A stretch of 20,453 nt of DNA from a virus (lineage: Duplodnaviria; Heunggongvirae; Uroviricota; Caudoviricetes): IMG/VR virus record IMGVR_UViG_2695420718_000008; one strand, 5' to 3'. Numbering within the stretch: position 1 is the stretch's first letter; each line of letters begins with the position of its first letter. The position numbers and the translations under genes are program-made. Below the pieces are notes generated by a model. It saw only the letters and a list, made by a program, of their open reading frames with translations, did not search any database and had not been told where the DNA came from. Below are positions 2,705 through 20,453 of this stretch, piece after piece.

Positions 2705-3166
2705 CTACTGGTTACGTTTCTTTAGTGCCAGCATGTTCTCGAAGGCTTCCTCGTAGAGCTTGTTTAGTCCACGTAGCTGGTTAAGGAGTTTGGCTTTTTC
2801 TGACGCAGGTAGAATCTCGAAGAGGTTAAGTAACTCTGCCTGTTCTTCATTGACCAGCCTCCATCCTTTGCCTGAAAAGTTATCATCATAAGTATCTGAT
2901 GATCTTACATAATTCATTAAGTCTTTAAGGTCTTCTCGAATGTCCTCTGGTTTTACCTTTAACAGAGCCGCAAATTTTAGCGCAGCGTCGGTATTTACCG
3001 GTATCTTGCCGTTCAGATACTGGCTAACGGTGCCTTGAGATTCGAATCCCAACAACTCAGCCGCCAGCTCTTGAGTCAGCTTCAGCTCTTTTTTTCTTGC
3101 ATTCCATGCGGCTTTTAAATTCTTGCTCGCTTCTGGAGTTGCAATCACTTCGCGTGTTTTTTTCAT
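2705..3166 (-). CDS. prophage repressor, DicA/RacR-like (N-terminal XRE-type HTH)
   Basis: 153-aa product with HTH-like segment LTQELAAELLGFESQGTVSQYLNGK; divergent from the cro-like gene across a 107-bp intergenic region holding a palindrome; C-terminal region resembles DicA. Confidence 0.7.
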   Translation of the reverse strand: MKKTREVIATPEASKNLKAAWNARKKELKLTQELAAELLGFESQGTVSQYLNGKIPVNTDAALKFAALLKVKPEDIREDLKDLMNYVRSSDTYDDNFSGKGWRLVNEEQAELLNLFEILPASEKAKLLNQLRGLNKLYEEAFENMLALKKRNQ

Positions 3167-3273: not shown

Positions 3274-3549
3274 ATGAACTTAAGAGACTATTTAAAAGAG
3301 AAACATATCACCCAGCTACAGTTTGGGAAGCTAACGGGTTTATCTCAGGTGCATGTAAGTCGAGTGCTGGGGGGCTATGAAAGATTCAGCCCTGAAAAAG
3401 CATTACGTGTTGCTGAAGTAACGAATTTCGAGGTTACACCTCATGAACTCCGGCCTGATATTTACCCGAATCCAACCGACGGCTTACCTGTTGGATTCAA
3501 GGCTAACACACCAAATGCATCGGAGTTGATTCATGAAAATCAGGCATGA
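3274..3549 (+). CDS. Cro/YdaS-like HTH protein
   Basis: ATG at 3274 with AAGG upstream (the track starts at an upstream TTG, 3268); product MNLRDYLKEKHITQLQFGKLTGLSQVHVSRVLGGYERFS has an HTH pattern; divergent from the repressor. Confidence 0.6.
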   Translation: MNLRDYLKEKHITQLQFGKLTGLSQVHVSRVLGGYERFSPEKALRVAEVTNFEVTPHELRPDIYPNPTDGLPVGFKANTPNASELIHENQA

Positions 3550-3958
3550 GCACATCCGCATGGCGATGAATGCCTGGGCGCATCCGGACGGTGAAAAAGT
3601 TCCGGCAGCTGAAATAACCCGGGCTTATTTTGAGCTTGGTATGACGTTCCCGGAATTATATGACGACAGCCATCCGGAAGCCCTGGCTCGCAATACCCAG
3701 AAAATTTTCCGCTGGGTGGAGAAAGACACTCCTGATGCGGTTAAAAAAATTCAGGCGTTGTTACCAGCGATCGAAAAAGCAATGCCGCCTCTGCTGGTGG
3801 CCCGAATGCGCAGCCACAGTTCAGCTTATTTTCGGGAGCTGGTGGAGACGCGGGAACGACTGGTGAGAGACGCTGATGATTTTGTCGCAGTGGCGATCGC
3901 TGGTTTCAACCAGATGAATCGTGGTGGCCCTGCAGGAAATATTGTGGCTGTGCATTGA
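3533..3958 (+). CDS. YdaT-like prophage protein (cII position)
   Basis: 141-aa product MKIRHEHIRMAMNAWAHPDGEKVPAAEITRAYFELGMTFPE... resembles my recollection of Rac YdaT; GGAG 7 nt upstream; overlaps the end of the cro-like gene. Confidence 0.55.
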   Translation: MKIRHEHIRMAMNAWAHPDGEKVPAAEITRAYFELGMTFPELYDDSHPEALARNTQKIFRWVEKDTPDAVKKIQALLPAIEKAMPPLLVARMRSHSSAYFRELVETRERLVRDADDFVAVAIAGFNQMNRGGPAGNIVAVH

Positions 3959-10566: not shown

Positions 10567-11613
10567 GTGCGGGTATTACTTCGACCTGTTCTGGTACCGG
10601 AACTCGGGCTGGTGATCGTTAAGCCGGGCCGTGAATCCATGCCGGTATTCCACAATACCCGGGTACTGGTGGAGCCGGAACCGAAAAGCATGCGTAATCT
10701 GCCGTCCGGGGTCGTTCCTGCCGTTCGCCAGCCGCTGGCGGAGGATAAATCATTACTGCCATTTTTCAGCGACGAACGAGTGATTCGTGCTGCTGGTGGC
10801 GCTGGCGCATTGTCTGATTGGTTACTGCGCCATGTTAAATCCTGCCAGTGGCCACACGGCGATTATCACCACAGTGAAACCGTCATTCACCGTTATGGTA
10901 CCGGCGCAATGGTGTTGTGCTGGCACTGCGACAACCAGCTGCGCGACCAGACCTCCGAATCACTCGGGCAACTTGCTCACCAAAACCTGTCTGCATGGAT
11001 GATTGACGTCATACGCCATGCAATGAATGGCTCGCAGGAACGGGAATTATCGCTGGCTGAATTATCCTGGTGGGCGGTCCGCAATCAGGTGGCGGACGCG
11101 CTACCGGAAGCGGTATTACGTCGTTCGCTGGGGTTGCGTGCGGAAAAAATCCGCTCAATGTACCGTGAAAGCGACATCGTACCGGGAGAGCAGACCGCCA
11201 CCAGCATACTGAAGCAGCGCACAAAAAATCTTGCGCCGCTGCCTCACGCCCACCAGCAAAACCCGCCACAGGAAGAGACGGTGGTCAGCATTGCCGTTGA
11301 TCCTGAGTCTCCGGAATCTTTCATGAAACGACCTAAACGTCGCCGCTGGGTTAACGAGAAATACACACGCTGGGTGAAGACACAGCCGTGTGCGTGTTGT
11401 GGTAAGCCAGCCGACGATCCCCATCACCTGATTGGTCATGGTCAGGGCGGAATGGGGACAAAATCTCACGATATTTTCACGCTACCGCTGTGTCGGGAGC
11501 ATCACAACGAGCTTCATGCGGATCCTCTGGCGTTCGAAGAAAAGCATGGTTCTCAGGTTGATTTAATTTTTCGTTTTCTTGATCACGCCTTTGCAACTGG
11601 CGTGCTTGGGTAA
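10567..11613 (+). CDS. DUF968 (YdfU-like) prophage protein with C-terminal HNH-like Cys/His motif
   Basis: 348-aa product; C-terminus CACCGKPADDPHHLIGHG...LPLCREHHNELH; GTG start at 10567 with GGAGG upstream; size and position match ydfU next to hokD in Qin. Confidence 0.65.
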   Translation: MRVLLRPVLVPELGLVIVKPGRESMPVFHNTRVLVEPEPKSMRNLPSGVVPAVRQPLAEDKSLLPFFSDERVIRAAGGAGALSDWLLRHVKSCQWPHGDYHHSETVIHRYGTGAMVLCWHCDNQLRDQTSESLGQLAHQNLSAWMIDVIRHAMNGSQERELSLAELSWWAVRNQVADALPEAVLRRSLGLRAEKIRSMYRESDIVPGEQTATSILKQRTKNLAPLPHAHQQNPPQEETVVSIAVDPESPESFMKRPKRRRWVNEKYTRWVKTQPCACCGKPADDPHHLIGHGQGGMGTKSHDIFTLPLCREHHNELHADPLAFEEKHGSQVDLIFRFLDHAFATGVLG

Positions 11614-14491: not shown

Positions 14492-14567
14492 GGCCCTTTA
14501 GCTCAGTGGTGAGAGCGAGCGACTCATAATCGCCAGGTCGCTGGTTCAAATCCAGCAAGGGCCACCA
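14492..14567 (+). tRNA. tRNA with CAU anticodon (Met or lysidine-dependent Ile2; ileZ-like position)
   Basis: Hand-folded cloverleaf: acceptor GGCCCTT/AAGGGCC, T-arm GCTGG-TTCAAAT-CCAGC, anticodon loop CTCATAA, encoded CCA 3' end. Confidence 0.8.
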
Positions 14568-14667: not shown

Positions 14668-14744
14668 GCGTTGTTAGCTCAGCCGGACAGAGCAATTGCC
14701 TTCTAAGCAATCCGTCACTGGTTCGAATCCAGTACAGCGCGCCA
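14668..14744 (+). tRNA. tRNA-Arg (anticodon UCU)
   Basis: Hand-folded cloverleaf: acceptor GCGTTGT/ACAGCGC (one G-U pair), anticodon stem ATTGC/GCAAT with loop CTTCTAA, T-arm ACTGG-TTCGAAT-CCAGT, encoded CCA. Confidence 0.8.
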
Positions 14745-15991: not shown

Positions 15992-16251
15992 TTAGTTTCC
16001 TTGTTTATGCCTTGCTGGTGATGTTCTGAAAAGTATAAATGATATTTTTGATTGTAAACCATAGAGCAGAATTATTTTTCTGATGTTGTTTATTGTTTAT
16101 TTAAATGCAGGGTGGTTTATATCTCGTCTTGTAGTTTATCCATGCATATCTGCTTGATGATGAGGTTTTTAATTAAGGTATGGTTTTGTGTTTTTTCTGT
16201 ATTACATGTCAGGTATTTTAAAGAATCATTTTTCAGATGGTGGAAAGAACC

Positions 16252-18108
16252 ATGGCATTTAAACACTATGATGTTGTCAGGGCGGCGTCGCCGTCAGATC
16301 TTGCGGAAAAGCTGACACATAAACTGAAAGAGGGCTGGCAGCCGTTTGGTAGTCCGGTGGCCATAACCCCTTATACCCTGATGCAGGCGATTGCAGCAGA
16401 AGGTGATGTGGTCGTCAGTGGTGCAACTGAGCCGGAGTGGTACTACGTCATCGTACTGGCCGGGCAATCCAATGCCATGGCTTACGGTGAAGGGCTTCCG
16501 CTTCCGGATTCTTACGATGCGCCCCACCCACGCATTAAGCAACTGGCCCGTCGCAACACAGTGACTCCCGGTGGTAAAGCATGCGCATTTAACGACATCA
16601 TTCCGGCAGACCACTGCCTGCATGATGTTCAGGATATGAGCGCACTGAATCATCCGAAGGCAGACCTGAGCAAAGGGCAGTACGGCTGTGTCGGCCAGGG
16701 CTTACATATTGCCAAAAAACTGCTTCCGTATATCCCGAATAACGCGGGGATCCTGCTGGTACCATGCTGTCGTGGTGGTTCGGCATTCACCCAGGGCGCG
16801 GAGGGGACATTCAGTGCGGACACGGGGGCCAGCCAGGATTCGGCACGCTGGGGTGTGGGTAAACCGTTATATCAGGACCTGATCGCACGCACCAAAGCGG
16901 CATTACAGAAGAACCCGAAAAATGTGTTGCTGGCGGTGTGCTGGATGCAGGGCGAATTTGACATGAGCGCTGCCACCTACGCACAGCAACCGGACCTGTT
17001 CACGGCCATGCTGAAGCAGTTCCGTACTGACCTTTCCGGATTTAACGCGCAGTGCCATGGCGGCAGTGCTGCAGTTGTACCGTGGATTTGTGGCGACACG
17101 ACGTATTACTGGAAAAACACATACGGCACACAGTATGACTCCGTCTACGGCGCGTACAAAAACAGGGAGAGCGACAACGTTTTCTTTGTGCCGTTCATGA
17201 CCGACGGTAACGGCAACAACACGCCCACCAACTTACCGGCAGAAGACCCGGATATTGCTGATGCAGGTTATTACGGCGCGCAATCCCGTAGTAATGGTAA
17301 TTGGGTATCGTCAAATCGTCCGACACATTTCAGTTCATGGGCGCGCAGGGGCATTATTTCGGATCGCCTGGCAACCGCTATTCTGAACGCAGTTGGTCGA
17401 ACCAGCGCCTTCATCAGCGGTACCGCACCGGAGATTAAACCCTCGCCCGGCGGCGACACGCCATCGGGGCCGTCTGATGGTGACACATCCGTTCGTACAG
17501 TCTCCCTGCTGCCGACAGCCGGAGAGGCTGCTGCGCAGGGCTGGACCATCACCGGCGGCAGTGTTGCGCTGGAAGATGGTGTGTTTAAGGTTGCCAAGCA
17601 GAGCAATAAAACCTGGTCCCTGATGCATCCGGTGGATGACGCGGTCTCCCTGCTGACACGGGGTGGCAGACTGAGCTGTAAGTTTCGACTGTCAGGCGCA
17701 CTGACCAACAACCAGTTCGGTCTGGGAATTTATCTGTATACCGATGTAGCGTTACCTGACGTCGTGGCGATGACCGGGACTGGTAACCCGTTCCTGATGT
17801 CGTTCTTCACCCAGACCACAGACGGCAAACTGAATCTGATGCATCACAAGAAAGCCGGAAACACAAAGTTGGGCGAGTTCGGGAATTACAGTAACGACTG
17901 GCAGACGCTGGAGCTGGTGTTCACCGCCGGCAGTGCCACGGTTACTCCGAAACTGAATGGAGTGGCTGGCCCGGCATTCCAGGTCATAAAAGACAGTCTG
18001 ACACTGGGGCTGAATGCGCTGACGCTGACGGATATTACCAAAAATGCAGCGTATGGCGTTGAGATAGAAAGTCTGGTGCTGGAGATAAATGCACCGGCAT
18101 CATCATAA
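16252..18108 (+). CDS. NanS-p-like sialate O-acetylesterase (SGNH/DUF303 hydrolase with C-terminal extension)
   Basis: About 618 aa; motif VIVLAGQSNAMAYGEG typical of YjhS/NanS-type SGNH esterases; Gly/Thr-rich C-terminal domain; sits between the cargo locus and the holin, as in Stx phages. ATG 16252 has a better SD than 16237. Confidence 0.65.
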   Translation: MAFKHYDVVRAASPSDLAEKLTHKLKEGWQPFGSPVAITPYTLMQAIAAEGDVVVSGATEPEWYYVIVLAGQSNAMAYGEGLPLPDSYDAPHPRIKQLARRNTVTPGGKACAFNDIIPADHCLHDVQDMSALNHPKADLSKGQYGCVGQGLHIAKKLLPYIPNNAGILLVPCCRGGSAFTQGAEGTFSADTGASQDSARWGVGKPLYQDLIARTKAALQKNPKNVLLAVCWMQGEFDMSAATYAQQPDLFTAMLKQFRTDLSGFNAQCHGGSAAVVPWICGDTTYYWKNTYGTQYDSVYGAYKNRESDNVFFVPFMTDGNGNNTPTNLPAEDPDIADAGYYGAQSRSNGNWVSSNRPTHFSSWARRGIISDRLATAILNAVGRTSAFISGTAPEIKPSPGGDTPSGPSDGDTSVRTVSLLPTAGEAAAQGWTITGGSVALEDGVFKVAKQSNKTWSLMHPVDDAVSLLTRGGRLSCKFRLSGALTNNQFGLGIYLYTDVALPDVVAMTGTGNPFLMSFFTQTTDGKLNLMHHKKAGNTKLGEFGNYSNDWQTLELVFTAGSATVTPKLNGVAGPAFQVIKDSLTLGLNALTLTDITKNAAYGVEIESLVLEINAPASS

Positions 18109-18264
18109 AAAGTGAGCCAGTCAAATGGAAGGTATCGTTAAACTCACCGGTAGTGTCAGTGGGTCGTCTGAGATGCCTGCATGAGTTATCAGAGCCATCA
18201 GTACTTAACTGGTGGCTTTTTTATTTTTTATTGTTGTCAGCTTCCGGATAACGGGAGACGGGGT

Positions 18265-18480
18265 ATGTACCAGATGGAAAAAATCACAACAGGTGTGTCA
18301 TACACCACGTCAGCGGTGGGAACGGGCTACTGGTTCCTGCAGTTGCTGGACAGGGTTTCCCCGTCTCAGTGGGCGGCAATAGGCGTGCTGGGGAGTCTGC
18401 TGTTTGGGCTGCTGACATATCTGACTAACCTGTATTTCAAAATCAGAGAGGACCGTCGTAAGGCTGCACGGGGAGAGTAA
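18265..18480 (+). CDS. class II holin, phage 21 S-like (pinholin) with dual-start motif
   Basis: 71-aa product [71 protein letters not shown] closely matches remembered S21; Met1/Met4 dual start; GGGAG upstream. Confidence 0.85.
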
Positions 18481-18484
18481 TTCA

Positions 18485-19291
18485 ATGACTCAAAACTATG
18501 AACTGATTGTGAAAGGGATCCGCAATTTTGAGAATAAAGTTACGGTAACTTTAGCGTTACGGGACAAAAAACGCTTTGACGGTGAAATTTTTGACCTGGA
18601 CATCTCGCTGGACCGTGTTGAAGGTGCCGCGCTGGAGGTTTATGAGGCAGCAGCCAGAAGGAGCATCAGACAGGTCTTCCTGGATGTTGCTGCCGGGTTA
18701 TGTGAAGGGGATGAGCTGTCGCCGGAAAAGCGCCCCATAATTTTAGAGGCGCAGGATGTGTTGATAACCTACAAAGGAAAGCTACCGGGAAGAATTACTG
18801 GTTCTCTGAAGATGCCGCCGTCAACACTGCGGTCAGAAAAAGAGGCGTCTTGTCTGCAGTCTGAGTACTCCATTACGGTTAAAAGTGCCGGAGAGGAAGG
18901 AAATAAACGTTATTTTATTGCGTCTGCACCTGATAAAGATCAGGAATGGGAGTGTAACCGGCCATCCTTTGTTGTATACGGAGATGGCGGGAAAATAACC
19001 ATCTCAGAAAATGGGAAATTAACACCGCCATCGCACCAGCATAGTGAGGCGCTCATTGAATTTGCCATTGATTACCTGAAGAACAATAAAAAGCAGGGGC
19101 TGATGAAGCGCATTGGTCGTTGCATGGGATATCTGCAGGTAGCAGCTGAGATTGAAATGATGGCCAGTGGTGCTGACAATGATGCAGTTGTGCTGGAGGC
19201 TCTTCTGCGTGATTTTGATAATACGCCCTTTAAGAAAGCACCTGTTGACTGGATGCAGCCGGGGATGACTTATCTGAAAGGGCGTATATAA
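18485..19291 (+). CDS. hypothetical protein (268 aa) inserted between holin and endolysin
   Basis: ATG 4 nt after the holin stop, preceded by GGGGAGAG; product MTQNYELIVKGIRNFENKVTVTLALRDKKRFDGEIFDLDISLDRVEGAALE... No family recognised. Confidence 0.55.
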   Translation: MTQNYELIVKGIRNFENKVTVTLALRDKKRFDGEIFDLDISLDRVEGAALEVYEAAARRSIRQVFLDVAAGLCEGDELSPEKRPIILEAQDVLITYKGKLPGRITGSLKMPPSTLRSEKEASCLQSEYSITVKSAGEEGNKRYFIASAPDKDQEWECNRPSFVVYGDGGKITISENGKLTPPSHQHSEALIEFAIDYLKNNKKQGLMKRIGRCMGYLQVAAEIEMMASGADNDAVVLEALLRDFDNTPFKKAPVDWMQPGMTYLKGRI

Positions 19292-19300
19292 GGTGGCTCG

Positions 19301-19615
19301 TTATCTGTTGCTGGATAATCGACTGAAGATGCGTTCTTTTTGTGTTTTTGCGTAATGATTGTCCCACTCACAATCAAGGTAGCTTAATTCTTCATTCAAC
19401 CAGTTATTTATATTGGTCTTAATACGCATAAGCATGGGCTGTGTTAATGCTCTGGCGATAATGCCGAGAGTCACAGGTGTGAGATGTCCATACGGCTCAG
19501 CCTGAATGGATTTTACTGCATCGTGTTCTTGTGGGAGGAGTAAGAGGCACTCTGATTTTACCCGCTCATTTATGGCTTGCAGGCATAAATCATAATTATG
19601 TTGATCGTTATGCAT
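19301..19615 (-). CDS. hypothetical protein (104 aa), convergent with the 268-aa gene, AT-rich
   Basis: Minus-strand ORF with AGAGGA 6 nt upstream of its ATG; product MHNDQHNYDLCLQAINERVKSECLLLLPQEHDAVKSIQAEPYGHL...; ends 9 bp from the stop of the 268-aa gene. Confidence 0.5.
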   Translation of the reverse strand: MHNDQHNYDLCLQAINERVKSECLLLLPQEHDAVKSIQAEPYGHLTPVTLGIIARALTQPMLMRIKTNINNWLNEELSYLDCEWDNHYAKTQKERIFSRLSSNR

Positions 19616-19743
19616 GGTTAATCCTCTACTGAAATTGTCAGATATATTTCAGCCATCAGGAAAAACGCCAGTGTCCTACCGCTGGCGGGCTGAAGATTTA
19701 ACATATCCAGGGATTCGGAACCGATAAATCCTGATAAATATCC

Positions 19744-20277
19744 ATGAACACCAAAATCAAATATGGCCTGTCGGCTGCCGTTCTGGCGTTGATTGCCATC
19801 GGTGCGCCTGCGCCTGATATTCTCGACCAGTTTCTGGATGAAAAAGAAGGTAACCACACAACGGCATACCGTGATGGTGCGGGTATCTGGACCATCTGCC
19901 GCGGTGCCACAATGGTGGATGGTAAACCTGTTATTCCGGGCATGAAACTGTCGAAGGAAAAATGCGACCAGGTTAATGCCATTGAACGGGATAAGGCGCT
20001 GGCATGGGTGGAGCGCAATATTAAAGTTCCACTGACCGAACCACAGAAAGCGGGTATAGCGTCATTCTGTCCCTATAACATTGGCCCCGGTAAGTGTTTC
20101 CCGTCGACGTTTTATAAGCGGCTGAATGCTGGTGACCGCAGGGGAGCGTGTGAGGCGATTCGCTGGTGGATTAAGGACGGTGGCAGAGACTGCCGTATTC
20201 GTTCAAACAACTGCTACGGTCAGGTATCCCGTCGTGACCAGGAGAGCGCGCTGGCGTGCTGGGGTATCGACAGATAA
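19744..20277 (+). CDS. SAR endolysin (T4-lysozyme-like muramidase with N-terminal signal-anchor-release domain)
   Basis: 177 aa; hydrophobic Gly/Ala-rich N-terminus YGLSAAVLALIAIGAPAP; catalytic E-x8-D-x5-T triad in EGNHTTAYRDGAGIWT; partners with the pinholin. Confidence 0.85.
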   Translation: MNTKIKYGLSAAVLALIAIGAPAPDILDQFLDEKEGNHTTAYRDGAGIWTICRGATMVDGKPVIPGMKLSKEKCDQVNAIERDKALAWVERNIKVPLTEPQKAGIASFCPYNIGPGKCFPSTFYKRLNAGDRRGACEAIRWWIKDGGRDCRIRSNNCYGQVSRRDQESALACWGIDR

Positions 20278-20372
20278 GCAGAATATTTTGCTGAAAAATA
20301 AGGCATGGCCACGCGGGCGGATAACATGAAATCCTGCGAACTGGCGAAACGTAAGTGAATAAAAGTAAAAAC

Positions 20373-20404
20373 CCCGTTTGTTGGCACCAAGCGGGGTTTT
20401 GTGT
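20373..20404 (+). terminator. putative rho-independent terminator downstream of the endolysin
   Basis: Stem CCCCGTTTG / CAAGCGGGG (one G-U pair) with 7-nt loop, followed by TTTTGTGTTT. Confidence 0.4.
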
Positions 20405-20453
20405 TTCCTGACTCCGGAAAAGTCAAAGGAGAAAGTGTGTTTGATTTTAGCAA

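Follow-up and report, generated by a model that had tools for sequence, protein, structure and literature searches.

A late YdfR-family gene and an antisense, moron-like gene between the holin and endolysin genes of a lambdoid prophage

What occupies the interval between the holin and endolysin genes of a lambdoid lysis cassette when the two are held apart, and does it belong to the lysis machinery? This question is raised by a 20,453-nt stretch of viral DNA (Duplodnaviria; Heunggongvirae; Uroviricota; Caudoviricetes; IMG/VR record IMGVR_UViG_2695420718_000008)—hereafter the window, at its full length—which ends on the right in the late region of a lambdoid prophage and in which the holin and endolysin genes are spaced by 1259 bp. 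A preliminary description of this DNA had placed two open reading frames (ORFs) in the interval, one encoding a protein of 268 amino acids (aa) on the late-operon strand and one encoding a 104-aa protein, here termed p104, on the opposite strand; the ORF list and the sequence bear out both the genes and their coordinates (Table 1). The same description took the region to be cargo, and the absence of this DNA from phage 933W speaks for cargo over core lysis machinery. Our analysis favors, with a probability of about 0.55, a late-operon YdfR-family gene combined with an antisense moron, the two forming an accessory module outside the core lysis machinery. The moron assignment is the best reading of four features: extra DNA, a lower G+C content, the opposite strand and a promoter-like leader common to annotated morons. 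Morons and the YdfR family were already known; the literature searched contains no description of the conserved pairing or of the shared, structured leader.

The gene order at this end of the window is a NanS-p-like sialate esterase gene (16237–18108), the holin gene, the 268-aa ORF, p104 and the lysozyme (endolysin) gene. As first described, the 268-aa ORF starts 4 nt past the holin stop codon (18478–18480), with GGGGAGAG (18470–18477) preceding it, while a 9-nt gap separates the end of p104 from the stop codon of the 268-aa gene, so that the two genes lie tail to tail, and p104 possesses the strong Shine–Dalgarno sequence that had been attributed to it. Its supposed AT-richness was sustained only in part: at 41%, the G+C content of p104 is lower than that of the window (48.5%) and of the holin and endolysin genes (53% each), but the difference is modest.

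Relative to some phages, the DNA between the two lysis genes is an addition: the holin stop of phage 933W is followed directly, after 4 nt, by the endolysin start, at the very point where the window has the start of the 268-aa gene. Adjacency of holin and endolysin had been presumed to be the rule for cassettes of this type, and here the wider comparison led to a different picture. A ydfR gene fills the slot in the Qin prophage of Escherichia coli K-12, where an essD-like holin, ydfR (103 aa) and rrrQ follow one another in the same arrangement, and also in BP-4795, which carries a 114-aa ydfR; moreover, 4137 of 5426 complete E. coli genomes (~76%) contain DNA of the N-terminal part of ydfR. 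Holin–endolysin contiguity is not the norm in E. coli prophages. The whole 1259-bp insert, on the other hand, is present in only 55 of the same 5426 genomes. An identical arrangement is annotated as orf5/orf6 in Stx2-converting phage 86 (94% DNA identity), and E. coli O104:H4 FDAARGOS_349 matches the p104 region at 100% identity, in a prophage without an annotated stx gene in the 24 kb around the match. In this strain of the outbreak lineage, the holin and ydfR genes (10975–11529 of locus L007) are annotated as pseudogenes, with p104 and the lysozyme gene intact and the cassette otherwise identical; the pseudogenes could be a case of real decay or an assembly error.

Neither product had been recognized in the preliminary description, and homology searches changed this for one of the two: the 268-aa protein carries a YdfR/DUF1327 domain (PF07041) over aa 1–100, with 136.7 bits against a cut-off of 25, and the pair has in fact been annotated since Stx2 phage 86. 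Residues 1–74 are 80% identical to YdfR of the K-12 Qin prophage. The protein as a whole is a three-part mosaic, consisting of a DUF1327 N-terminal domain (N-domain, ~aa 1–85), a linker and a C-terminal domain (C-domain, ~aa 133–268), the last of which is covered by phrog_1085 (aa 132–268). The C-domain is rare—its profile gave only 40 matches among 1.84 billion cluster representatives—and has the conserved core GRCMGYLQVAAEIE ... PPFK..W..PG..YL, with L198, G211, R212, L217, Q218, A220, P248, K250, W256, P259 and Y263 invariant in the family alignment. Over the last 110 codons of the gene, the ratio of nonsynonymous to synonymous substitution rates (dN/dS) was 0.16–0.42 in in-register comparisons, with loci L008 and L010 left out as out of register over part of the segment. 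No transmembrane or signal segment is present (maximum 19-residue Kyte–Doolittle average, 0.87), a PDB sequence search with the protein returned nothing meaningful, and no catalytic pattern is evident in the C-domain family alignment. Cys213 was considered as a catalytic residue and discarded, as it is Ser or Ala in relatives.

The C-domain has been combined with different partners. Within E. coli, it follows N-domains that are 54–56% or 94–100% identical, it occurs behind a coiled-coil N-terminus devoid of DUF1327, in proteins of 185–217 aa, and it is also found with longer linkers (287–329 aa); the window protein itself lacks the coiled-coil segment seen in relatives. More distant relatives (28–36% identity), which adjoin holin genes in other lambdoid prophages, contain a diverged DUF1327-like N-domain, a coiled coil and the C-domain, and one of them still weakly matches PF07041. 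Since these distant relatives keep both domains, the two-domain form is old and not an accident of this locus. The contrary explanation would have the long ORF be an accidental in-frame fusion at a recombination hotspot, with p104 hitch-hiking and the whole insert amounting to functionless mosaic debris. The heavy mosaicism, with the same C-domain joined to N-domains of 54–100% identity or to none, is compatible with such an origin, as are the missing coiled coil and the pseudogenes annotated in the one O104:H4 assembly. However, both genes are under purifying selection, the fold of p104 is predicted with confidence, and the two-domain architecture and the gene pair have been kept in lineages only 28–47% identical; we regard this explanation as very improbable.

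The N-domain connects the 268-aa protein to the one relevant paper on YdfR function in the literature searched (PMC13232886). In that study, K-12 YdfR emerged from a two-hybrid screen, its residues 1–72 binding the N-terminal catalytic half of RNase E, and it co-purified with RNase E(1–598) and DNase-resistant nucleic acid; RNA binding by the K-12 protein is reported in the same study (PMC13232886). The likeliest activity of the 268-aa protein, judged from its sequence, would be the binding of RNase E and/or RNA late in infection. Qin YdfR (P76160, PF07041) is positioned in the same way, in the slot between a phage 21-type holin and a lysozyme gene, on the same strand and with its start 4 nt past the holin stop. 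The two proteins differ in that the K-12 form has 103 aa, with the N-domain and a short helix only, whereas the window protein carries the rare C-domain in addition; furthermore, the next gene downstream of ydfR in the window is a convergent one.

The convergent gene, p104, was intact in all eight diverged copies compared, with dN/dS values of 0.24–0.37. AlphaFold2 predicted a five-helix bundle with a predicted local distance difference test (pLDDT) score of 88 and a predicted template modeling (pTM) score of 0.82, from an alignment containing only eight homologues. Both ORFs are thus real genes, as indicated by purifying selection and, for p104, by the confident structural model as well. Like its neighbor, p104 shows no transmembrane or signal segment (maximum 19-residue Kyte–Doolittle average, 1.16). 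A first search recovered homologues in 13 clusters, all from E. coli, and a profile including two distant copies extended this to 43 clusters and added Salmonella enterica; a scan of species-representative genomes gave 3 loci only and was uninformative on host range.

The genomic contexts of these homologues provide the main evidence for a module. In the contexts looked up, the gene lies in the holin–endolysin gap in E. coli, between Q and the holin gene in Salmonella, and on two unassigned contigs, tail to tail with a C-domain gene in each case. Across all fetched loci—a sample biased by the manner of fetching, in which many copies are near-identical—a convergent C-domain gene was located within −33 to +32 nt of 66 of the 68 p104 ORFs, the other two being at contig ends. 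The pairing is kept for p104 homologues of 37–47% identity (Salmonella and the unassigned contigs), the Salmonella partners being full two-domain proteins of 260–262 aa. Additionally, the small neighbors of two distant C-domain genes (P0132 and P0137) turned out to be true p104 homologues, with 37–42% identity and hhalign probabilities of 99.7–99.9. Given this convergence, maintained down to ~40% protein identity, p104 and the long YdfR constitute a conserved two-gene accessory module.

Other small genes occupy the equivalent convergent place elsewhere, encoding a 90-aa protein (L006, 2111–2383, minus strand), an 86-aa protein (L002, 3341–3601, minus strand) and a DUF1883 protein (L063, 4651–4941, minus strand). 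The latter two are situated behind the same leader hairpin as p104, and the cargo in the slot appears to be exchangeable. In the Salmonella locus L073, a 97-aa ORF with a hydrophobic stretch (3398–3691, minus strand; no Pfam match on record) lies between the p104 module and the holin gene. Several candidate relationships of p104 were rejected. The DUF1883 protein is unrelated (hhalign probability 0.1), the O177:H21 90-aa and PhiR5_1 86-aa proteins reached 23–25% identity in forced alignments with no relation shown, and an RpiR-family helix–turn–helix match (3iwf, E 0.069, profile against PDB sequences) was not recovered by fold searches and has a Pro-Tyr-Gly in the aligned region.

A fixed pair of a larger and a smaller gene invites comparison with type II toxin–antitoxin or effector–immunity systems, in which a larger protein is likewise tightly linked, across divergence, to a small helical protein of ~100 aa. 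In such a scheme, resembling a toxin–antitoxin or abortive-infection system, the C-domain would be harmful or highly active and p104 would neutralize its leaky expression in the lysogen, until induction shut p104 off by convergent transcription and freed the effector. The association in 66 of 68 loci, with no assessable p104 lacking a C-domain partner, its retention to ~40% identity in several lineages and the close tail-to-tail spacing are all in keeping with this scheme. Against it stand the convergent orientation of the two genes, when antitoxins normally share the operon of the toxin; the existence of the C-domain gene without p104 in the apparently intact cassettes of Stx2_95, L066 and L067; and the lack of a catalytic signature, the one conserved Cys being replaced in relatives. 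Nor was there a match to either protein, or to the p104 counterparts, among the defense and toxin models of PADLOC-DB 2.0 (E ≤ 0.1). Searches with the module proteins gave no NCBIfam match, only families of unknown function in PHROGs and no known fold. None of the searches run supported a membrane lysis function, a defense family or a toxin family, and we consider an effector with its inhibitor unlikely, although not negligibly so.

The DNA preceding p104 adds a further line of evidence. A control region for the minus-strand gene had been predicted just upstream of the endolysin start, and a conserved leader is indeed located there (Table 1). The element is ~105–130 nt long and combines a promoter-like motif, two hairpins and a ribosome-binding site. 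Across 51 copies, its 5′ part reads CAGGGTGTT..N..AACCCTGG, followed by TAnnGT 7–8 nt ahead of TCAG, and its 3′ part consists of hairpin 1, a ~12-nt spacer, hairpin 2 (with a variable stem and the loop GATGGCTGATTA), AAGGA and the start codon. The core CAGCCCG(C/T)CAGTG–loop–CACTGGCG is near-invariant while the proteins diverge to ~40% identity. In the window, the −10-like TATGTT lies 7–8 nt upstream of the conserved CAGCCCG; in the aligned copies, inspected by eye, TAnnGT recurs 7–8 nt before the leader hairpin, with a TTGCT/TTAtC-type motif 15–17 nt upstream.

For hairpin 1, 99.8% of cells are paired in the 51 copies, and a single pair varies, being U.G in 38 of them and C-G in 13; the U.G form can pair as a wobble on the cargo strand but becomes an A.C mismatch on the late-operon strand. 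For hairpin 2, four of the six pairs change on both sides across the family, and the TGAAAT...ATTTCA stem of the window is a compensated variant. Although hairpin 1 is followed in the window by a U-run (19665–19661), a main role as a simple terminator was rejected, as the U-run is absent from Salmonella and canonical copies. A search of Rfam 15 gave no match to the window element (E ≤ 1) or to six canonical copies (E ≤ 0.1). The HK022 put antitermination RNAs consist of two stem-loops just downstream of a promoter; the identification of the leader as such an RNA was likewise dismissed, since an nhmmer search with the leader profile gave no match in the early region of HK022, where putL and putR are located. 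Neither the core sequence nor an account of the shared leader was encountered in the searchable literature.

A structured leader on the antisense strand could also mean that the minus-strand unit acts mainly as RNA, that is, as a hairpin-stabilized antisense transcript running into the YdfR and holin genes and damping leaky late or lysis expression, or excluding related phages, as STnc6030 does. The convergent layout with no terminator between the genes and the conservation of the structured leader agree with this idea, for which there is a precedent in an antisense RNA within late genes that mediates exclusion (PMC7067206). STnc6030, from Salmonella prophage BTP1, is likewise expressed from the lysogen on the strand opposite to late genes and has an accessory role, in exclusion (PMC7067206); it differs in being non-coding, in lying in the tailspike region and in its unrelated sequence, whereas the antisense unit of the window codes for a protein. 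Several observations argue against RNA as the main product: the p104 ORF is under purifying selection and has a confidently predicted fold, its protein sequence has been kept at loci with diverged DNA, and a good ribosome-binding site ends the leader before every cargo. A role of the RNA could be additional but would not be sufficient, and we hold a mainly RNA-based unit to be improbable.

The leader is by no means restricted to p104. An exact-pattern scan found it in at least 120 IMG/VR contigs, its canonical form is present in 221 of the 5426 complete E. coli genomes—never annotated there—and in enterobacterial phages at least 22 unrelated small-ORF clusters (62–210 aa) have it upstream; leader-bearing loci include L078–L157 and L198–L200. 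Ten cargo representatives were scanned and yielded no known function. The leader stands before the DUF1883 gene in L063, has been left behind in L067, where p104 is gone, and in mEp213 precedes a gene that follows Rz. Furthermore, a DUF1327 ORF directly faces the cargo in about 10 of 83 leader loci. Two occurrences link the leader to annotated morons: HK022 gp23 ('srb', 'moron gene product'), located between tail genes I and J, and ES18 gp25 ('possible moron'), convergent with the DUF1327 gene gp24, which lies between tail genes. Both share the same leader of ~105 nt with the window unit, and the convergence of ES18 gp25 with a DUF1327 gene repeats the arrangement described here. The two differ from the window unit in their position among tail genes and in their unrelated cargo; moreover, ES18 gp24 has only 86 aa and DUF1327 alone, and the window unit shows no terminator of its own. 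More generally, the HK97/HK022-type morons (PMC3594210, summarizing Juhala et al. 2000) correspond to the window unit in that they, too, add opposite-strand DNA of lower G+C content between conserved late genes.

These contexts bear as well on whether the two proteins are lysis-timing accessories—antiholin-, releasin- or lysis-inhibition-like factors tuning the pathway of the pinholin and the signal-arrest-release (SAR) endolysin. Members of the family adjoin holin genes in every late-region context examined, either in the holin–endolysin gap or just upstream of the holin gene, and the start of the YdfR gene is coupled to the holin stop, both of which would suit such a function. However, the hydrophobicity maxima of the two proteins (0.87 and 1.16) fall below those of the holin segment (1.70) and of the Gly/Ala-rich, weakly hydrophobic SAR-like segment at the endolysin N-terminus (1.88), and neither protein has a transmembrane or signal segment. 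In addition, 933W manages with a contiguous holin and endolysin; the DUF1327 gene of ES18 and its leader-driven cargo, like the leader and moron of HK022, are found among tail genes; and p104 is encoded on the strand opposite to the late operon. A part in lysis timing is accordingly improbable in our view. The preliminary description had allowed for both genes turning out to be conserved, characterized lysis accessory proteins: they are conserved at this position, but they are not characterized lysis accessory proteins.

We return to the reading favored above, a late YdfR-family gene facing an antisense moron. The 268-aa protein, whose start codon is coupled to the holin stop, would be a late product, translated from the Q-dependent transcript that also encodes the holin and the endolysin, and p104 would be transcribed on its own, most likely in the lysogen, toward the YdfR gene and the holin gene. 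According to background literature, a gene antisense to a late operon is typically a moron expressed in the lysogen (PMC3594210, PMC7067206), and antisense transcripts in late genes can matter (PMC7067206). With no terminator between the two genes, the strong late transcript made on induction would cross the p104 promoter and give rise to RNA complementary to p104 mRNA; as convergent units of this kind should interfere, opposite timing would be expected—p104 in the lysogen, YdfR and the lysis genes after induction—and the two genes would then be expressed at different times. The last step is the weakest one: that p104 always accompanies the YdfR C-domain suggests that the two proteins may act on the same process, or that p104 may restrain the C-domain protein. 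We infer this functional coupling, as we do the expression timing, the promoter and the link to RNase E. A partial parallel is offered by the bor gene of lambda and Stx phages, also a small opposite-strand gene at the edge of the lysis cassette and annotated as lysogen-expressed in 933W; Bor, however, is an outer-membrane lipoprotein encoded after Rz, whereas p104 is a soluble helical protein encoded inside the cassette, with no sequence relation.

Several points weigh against this reading. A classical moron has its own terminator, and neither the 9-nt gap nor the 3′ end of the facing gene contained a terminator-like site. A generic sigma-70 consensus scan called no promoter upstream of p104, which is why the −10-like hexamer is proposed here as a putative element. 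The bias and redundancy of the locus sample affect the count on which the pairing rests. The C-domain exists without p104 in the three cassettes named above, and in the Salmonella locus L063 it faces the unrelated convergent DUF1883 gene; considered together with the many cargos of the leader, its occurrence without p104 means that the linkage could reflect shared descent and a preferred insertion site, and not a partnership of proteins. For the 268-aa protein, AlphaFold2 gave a poor model (pLDDT 46), from which no fold can be derived for the C-domain. Finally, RNase E binding has been reported for the short K-12 protein alone, by two-hybrid and pull-down assays, and overproduction of that protein altered few transcripts (PMC13232886).

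A more far-reaching proposal takes the leader as the mark of a shared late-operon 'slot' in enterobacterial temperate phages, through which hypervariable small accessory genes are swapped. The facing DUF1327/YdfR protein would act there as a dedicated late off-switch, namely as an RNase E adaptor that recognizes the invariant hairpin and destroys the moron mRNA on induction, and the exchanged genes may be exclusion, defense, anti-defense or host-modulating factors. We judge this proposal distinctly unlikely; if the leader did mark such a slot, it would offer a cheap sequence tag for new prophage fitness, exclusion or defense factors.

Comparison with BP-4795 gives an indication of how long and short ydfR cassettes are related. 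The borders of the insert relative to this phage fall just after CTGAAGA within ydfR and within leader hairpin 1, and upstream of the BP-4795 endolysin gene the p104-leader profile matches with its first 59 positions only. Because of this partial leader match and the border positions, the common short ydfR cassettes appear to be deletion derivatives of the long module. The short YdfR form itself resembles a truncated derivative of an older protein with two domains. In 2208 E. coli genomes, the stretch just before the endolysin start (3088–3146 in the BP-4795 locus L003; 19666–19743 in the window) is conserved; it corresponds to the 5′ half of the moron leader, and by virtue of this correspondence, the translation-initiation region of the endolysin gene would overlap the putative moron promoter on the opposite strand.

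Most E. coli lambdoid prophages have a YdfR-family gene within their lysis cassette, among them K-12 Qin, Stx phages and a prophage from the O104:H4 outbreak lineage. The long form is accompanied by a specific gene on the opposite strand, whose structured leader is common to dozens of unrelated 'dark-matter' ORFs. The promoter and leader, the gene pair and the testable link to RNase E provide handles for experiments.

Table 1. Features of the holin–endolysin interval and its flanks, in window coordinates.
Feature	Position	Strand	Basis
Holin, phage 21-type class II, pinholin-like; left flank of the module	18265–18480	+	Phage_holin_2_1 PF04971, E 9e-33
Long-form YdfR-family late gene, 268 aa (N-domain, linker, C-domain)	18485–19291	+	ORF, PF07041, phrog_1085, dN/dS
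DUF1327/YdfR N-terminal domain, aa 1–100	18485–18784	+	PF07041
Rare C-terminal domain, aa 133–268	18881–19288	+	Profile search, family alignment
p104, 104-aa five-helix cytoplasmic protein, probable moron cargo ORF	19301–19615	−	ORF, dN/dS, AlphaFold2, homologues
Conserved promoter-leader element, probably of a moron	19606–19734	−	nhmmer, extent of the whole match to the profile of 51 distinct copies, E 1e-22
Shine–Dalgarno sequence GAGGA, 6 nt before the p104 ATG	19622–19626	−	Sequence
Hairpin 2, window form TGAAAT-ATATCTGACA-ATTTCA; canonical form CAGAGG-GATGGCTGATTA-CCTCTG	19630–19651	−	Covariation
Hairpin 1, CGCCAGCG-GTAGGA-CACTGGCG	19666–19687	−	99.8% paired cells, 51 copies
Putative −10-like hexamer TATGTT (family form TAnnGT)	19700–19705	−	Position conservation, by eye
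Putative −35-like TTATCG	19727–19722	−	Reading by eye
SAR-type endolysin R; right flank of the module	19744–20277	+	Phage_lysozyme PF00959

The flanks of the cassette contain additional features. In the gap between the esterase and holin genes (18109–18264), a strong terminator-like hairpin (18191–18219, plus strand) is followed by a T-run. According to a 2026 preprint, the prophage small RNA (sRNA) genes pasA, pasC and pasD1 lie in the interval from the sialate esterase gene to the holin/lysozyme operon, and on this ground the gap may hold such an sRNA; a search of 18100–20453 against Rfam produced no match in it. Downstream, ~90 nt past the endolysin stop and ahead of any spanin gene, lies another strong terminator-like hairpin (20368–20400, plus strand; 13 pairs and a T-run), so that the late transcript would need antitermination to get past it. 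Upstream of the esterase gene, from which no stx-sized ORFs are listed back to the tRNA genes, there are two of the latter on the plus strand (14492–14567 and 14668–14744), with the anticodons CAT and TCT, in the position where Stx phages carry tRNAs and stx.

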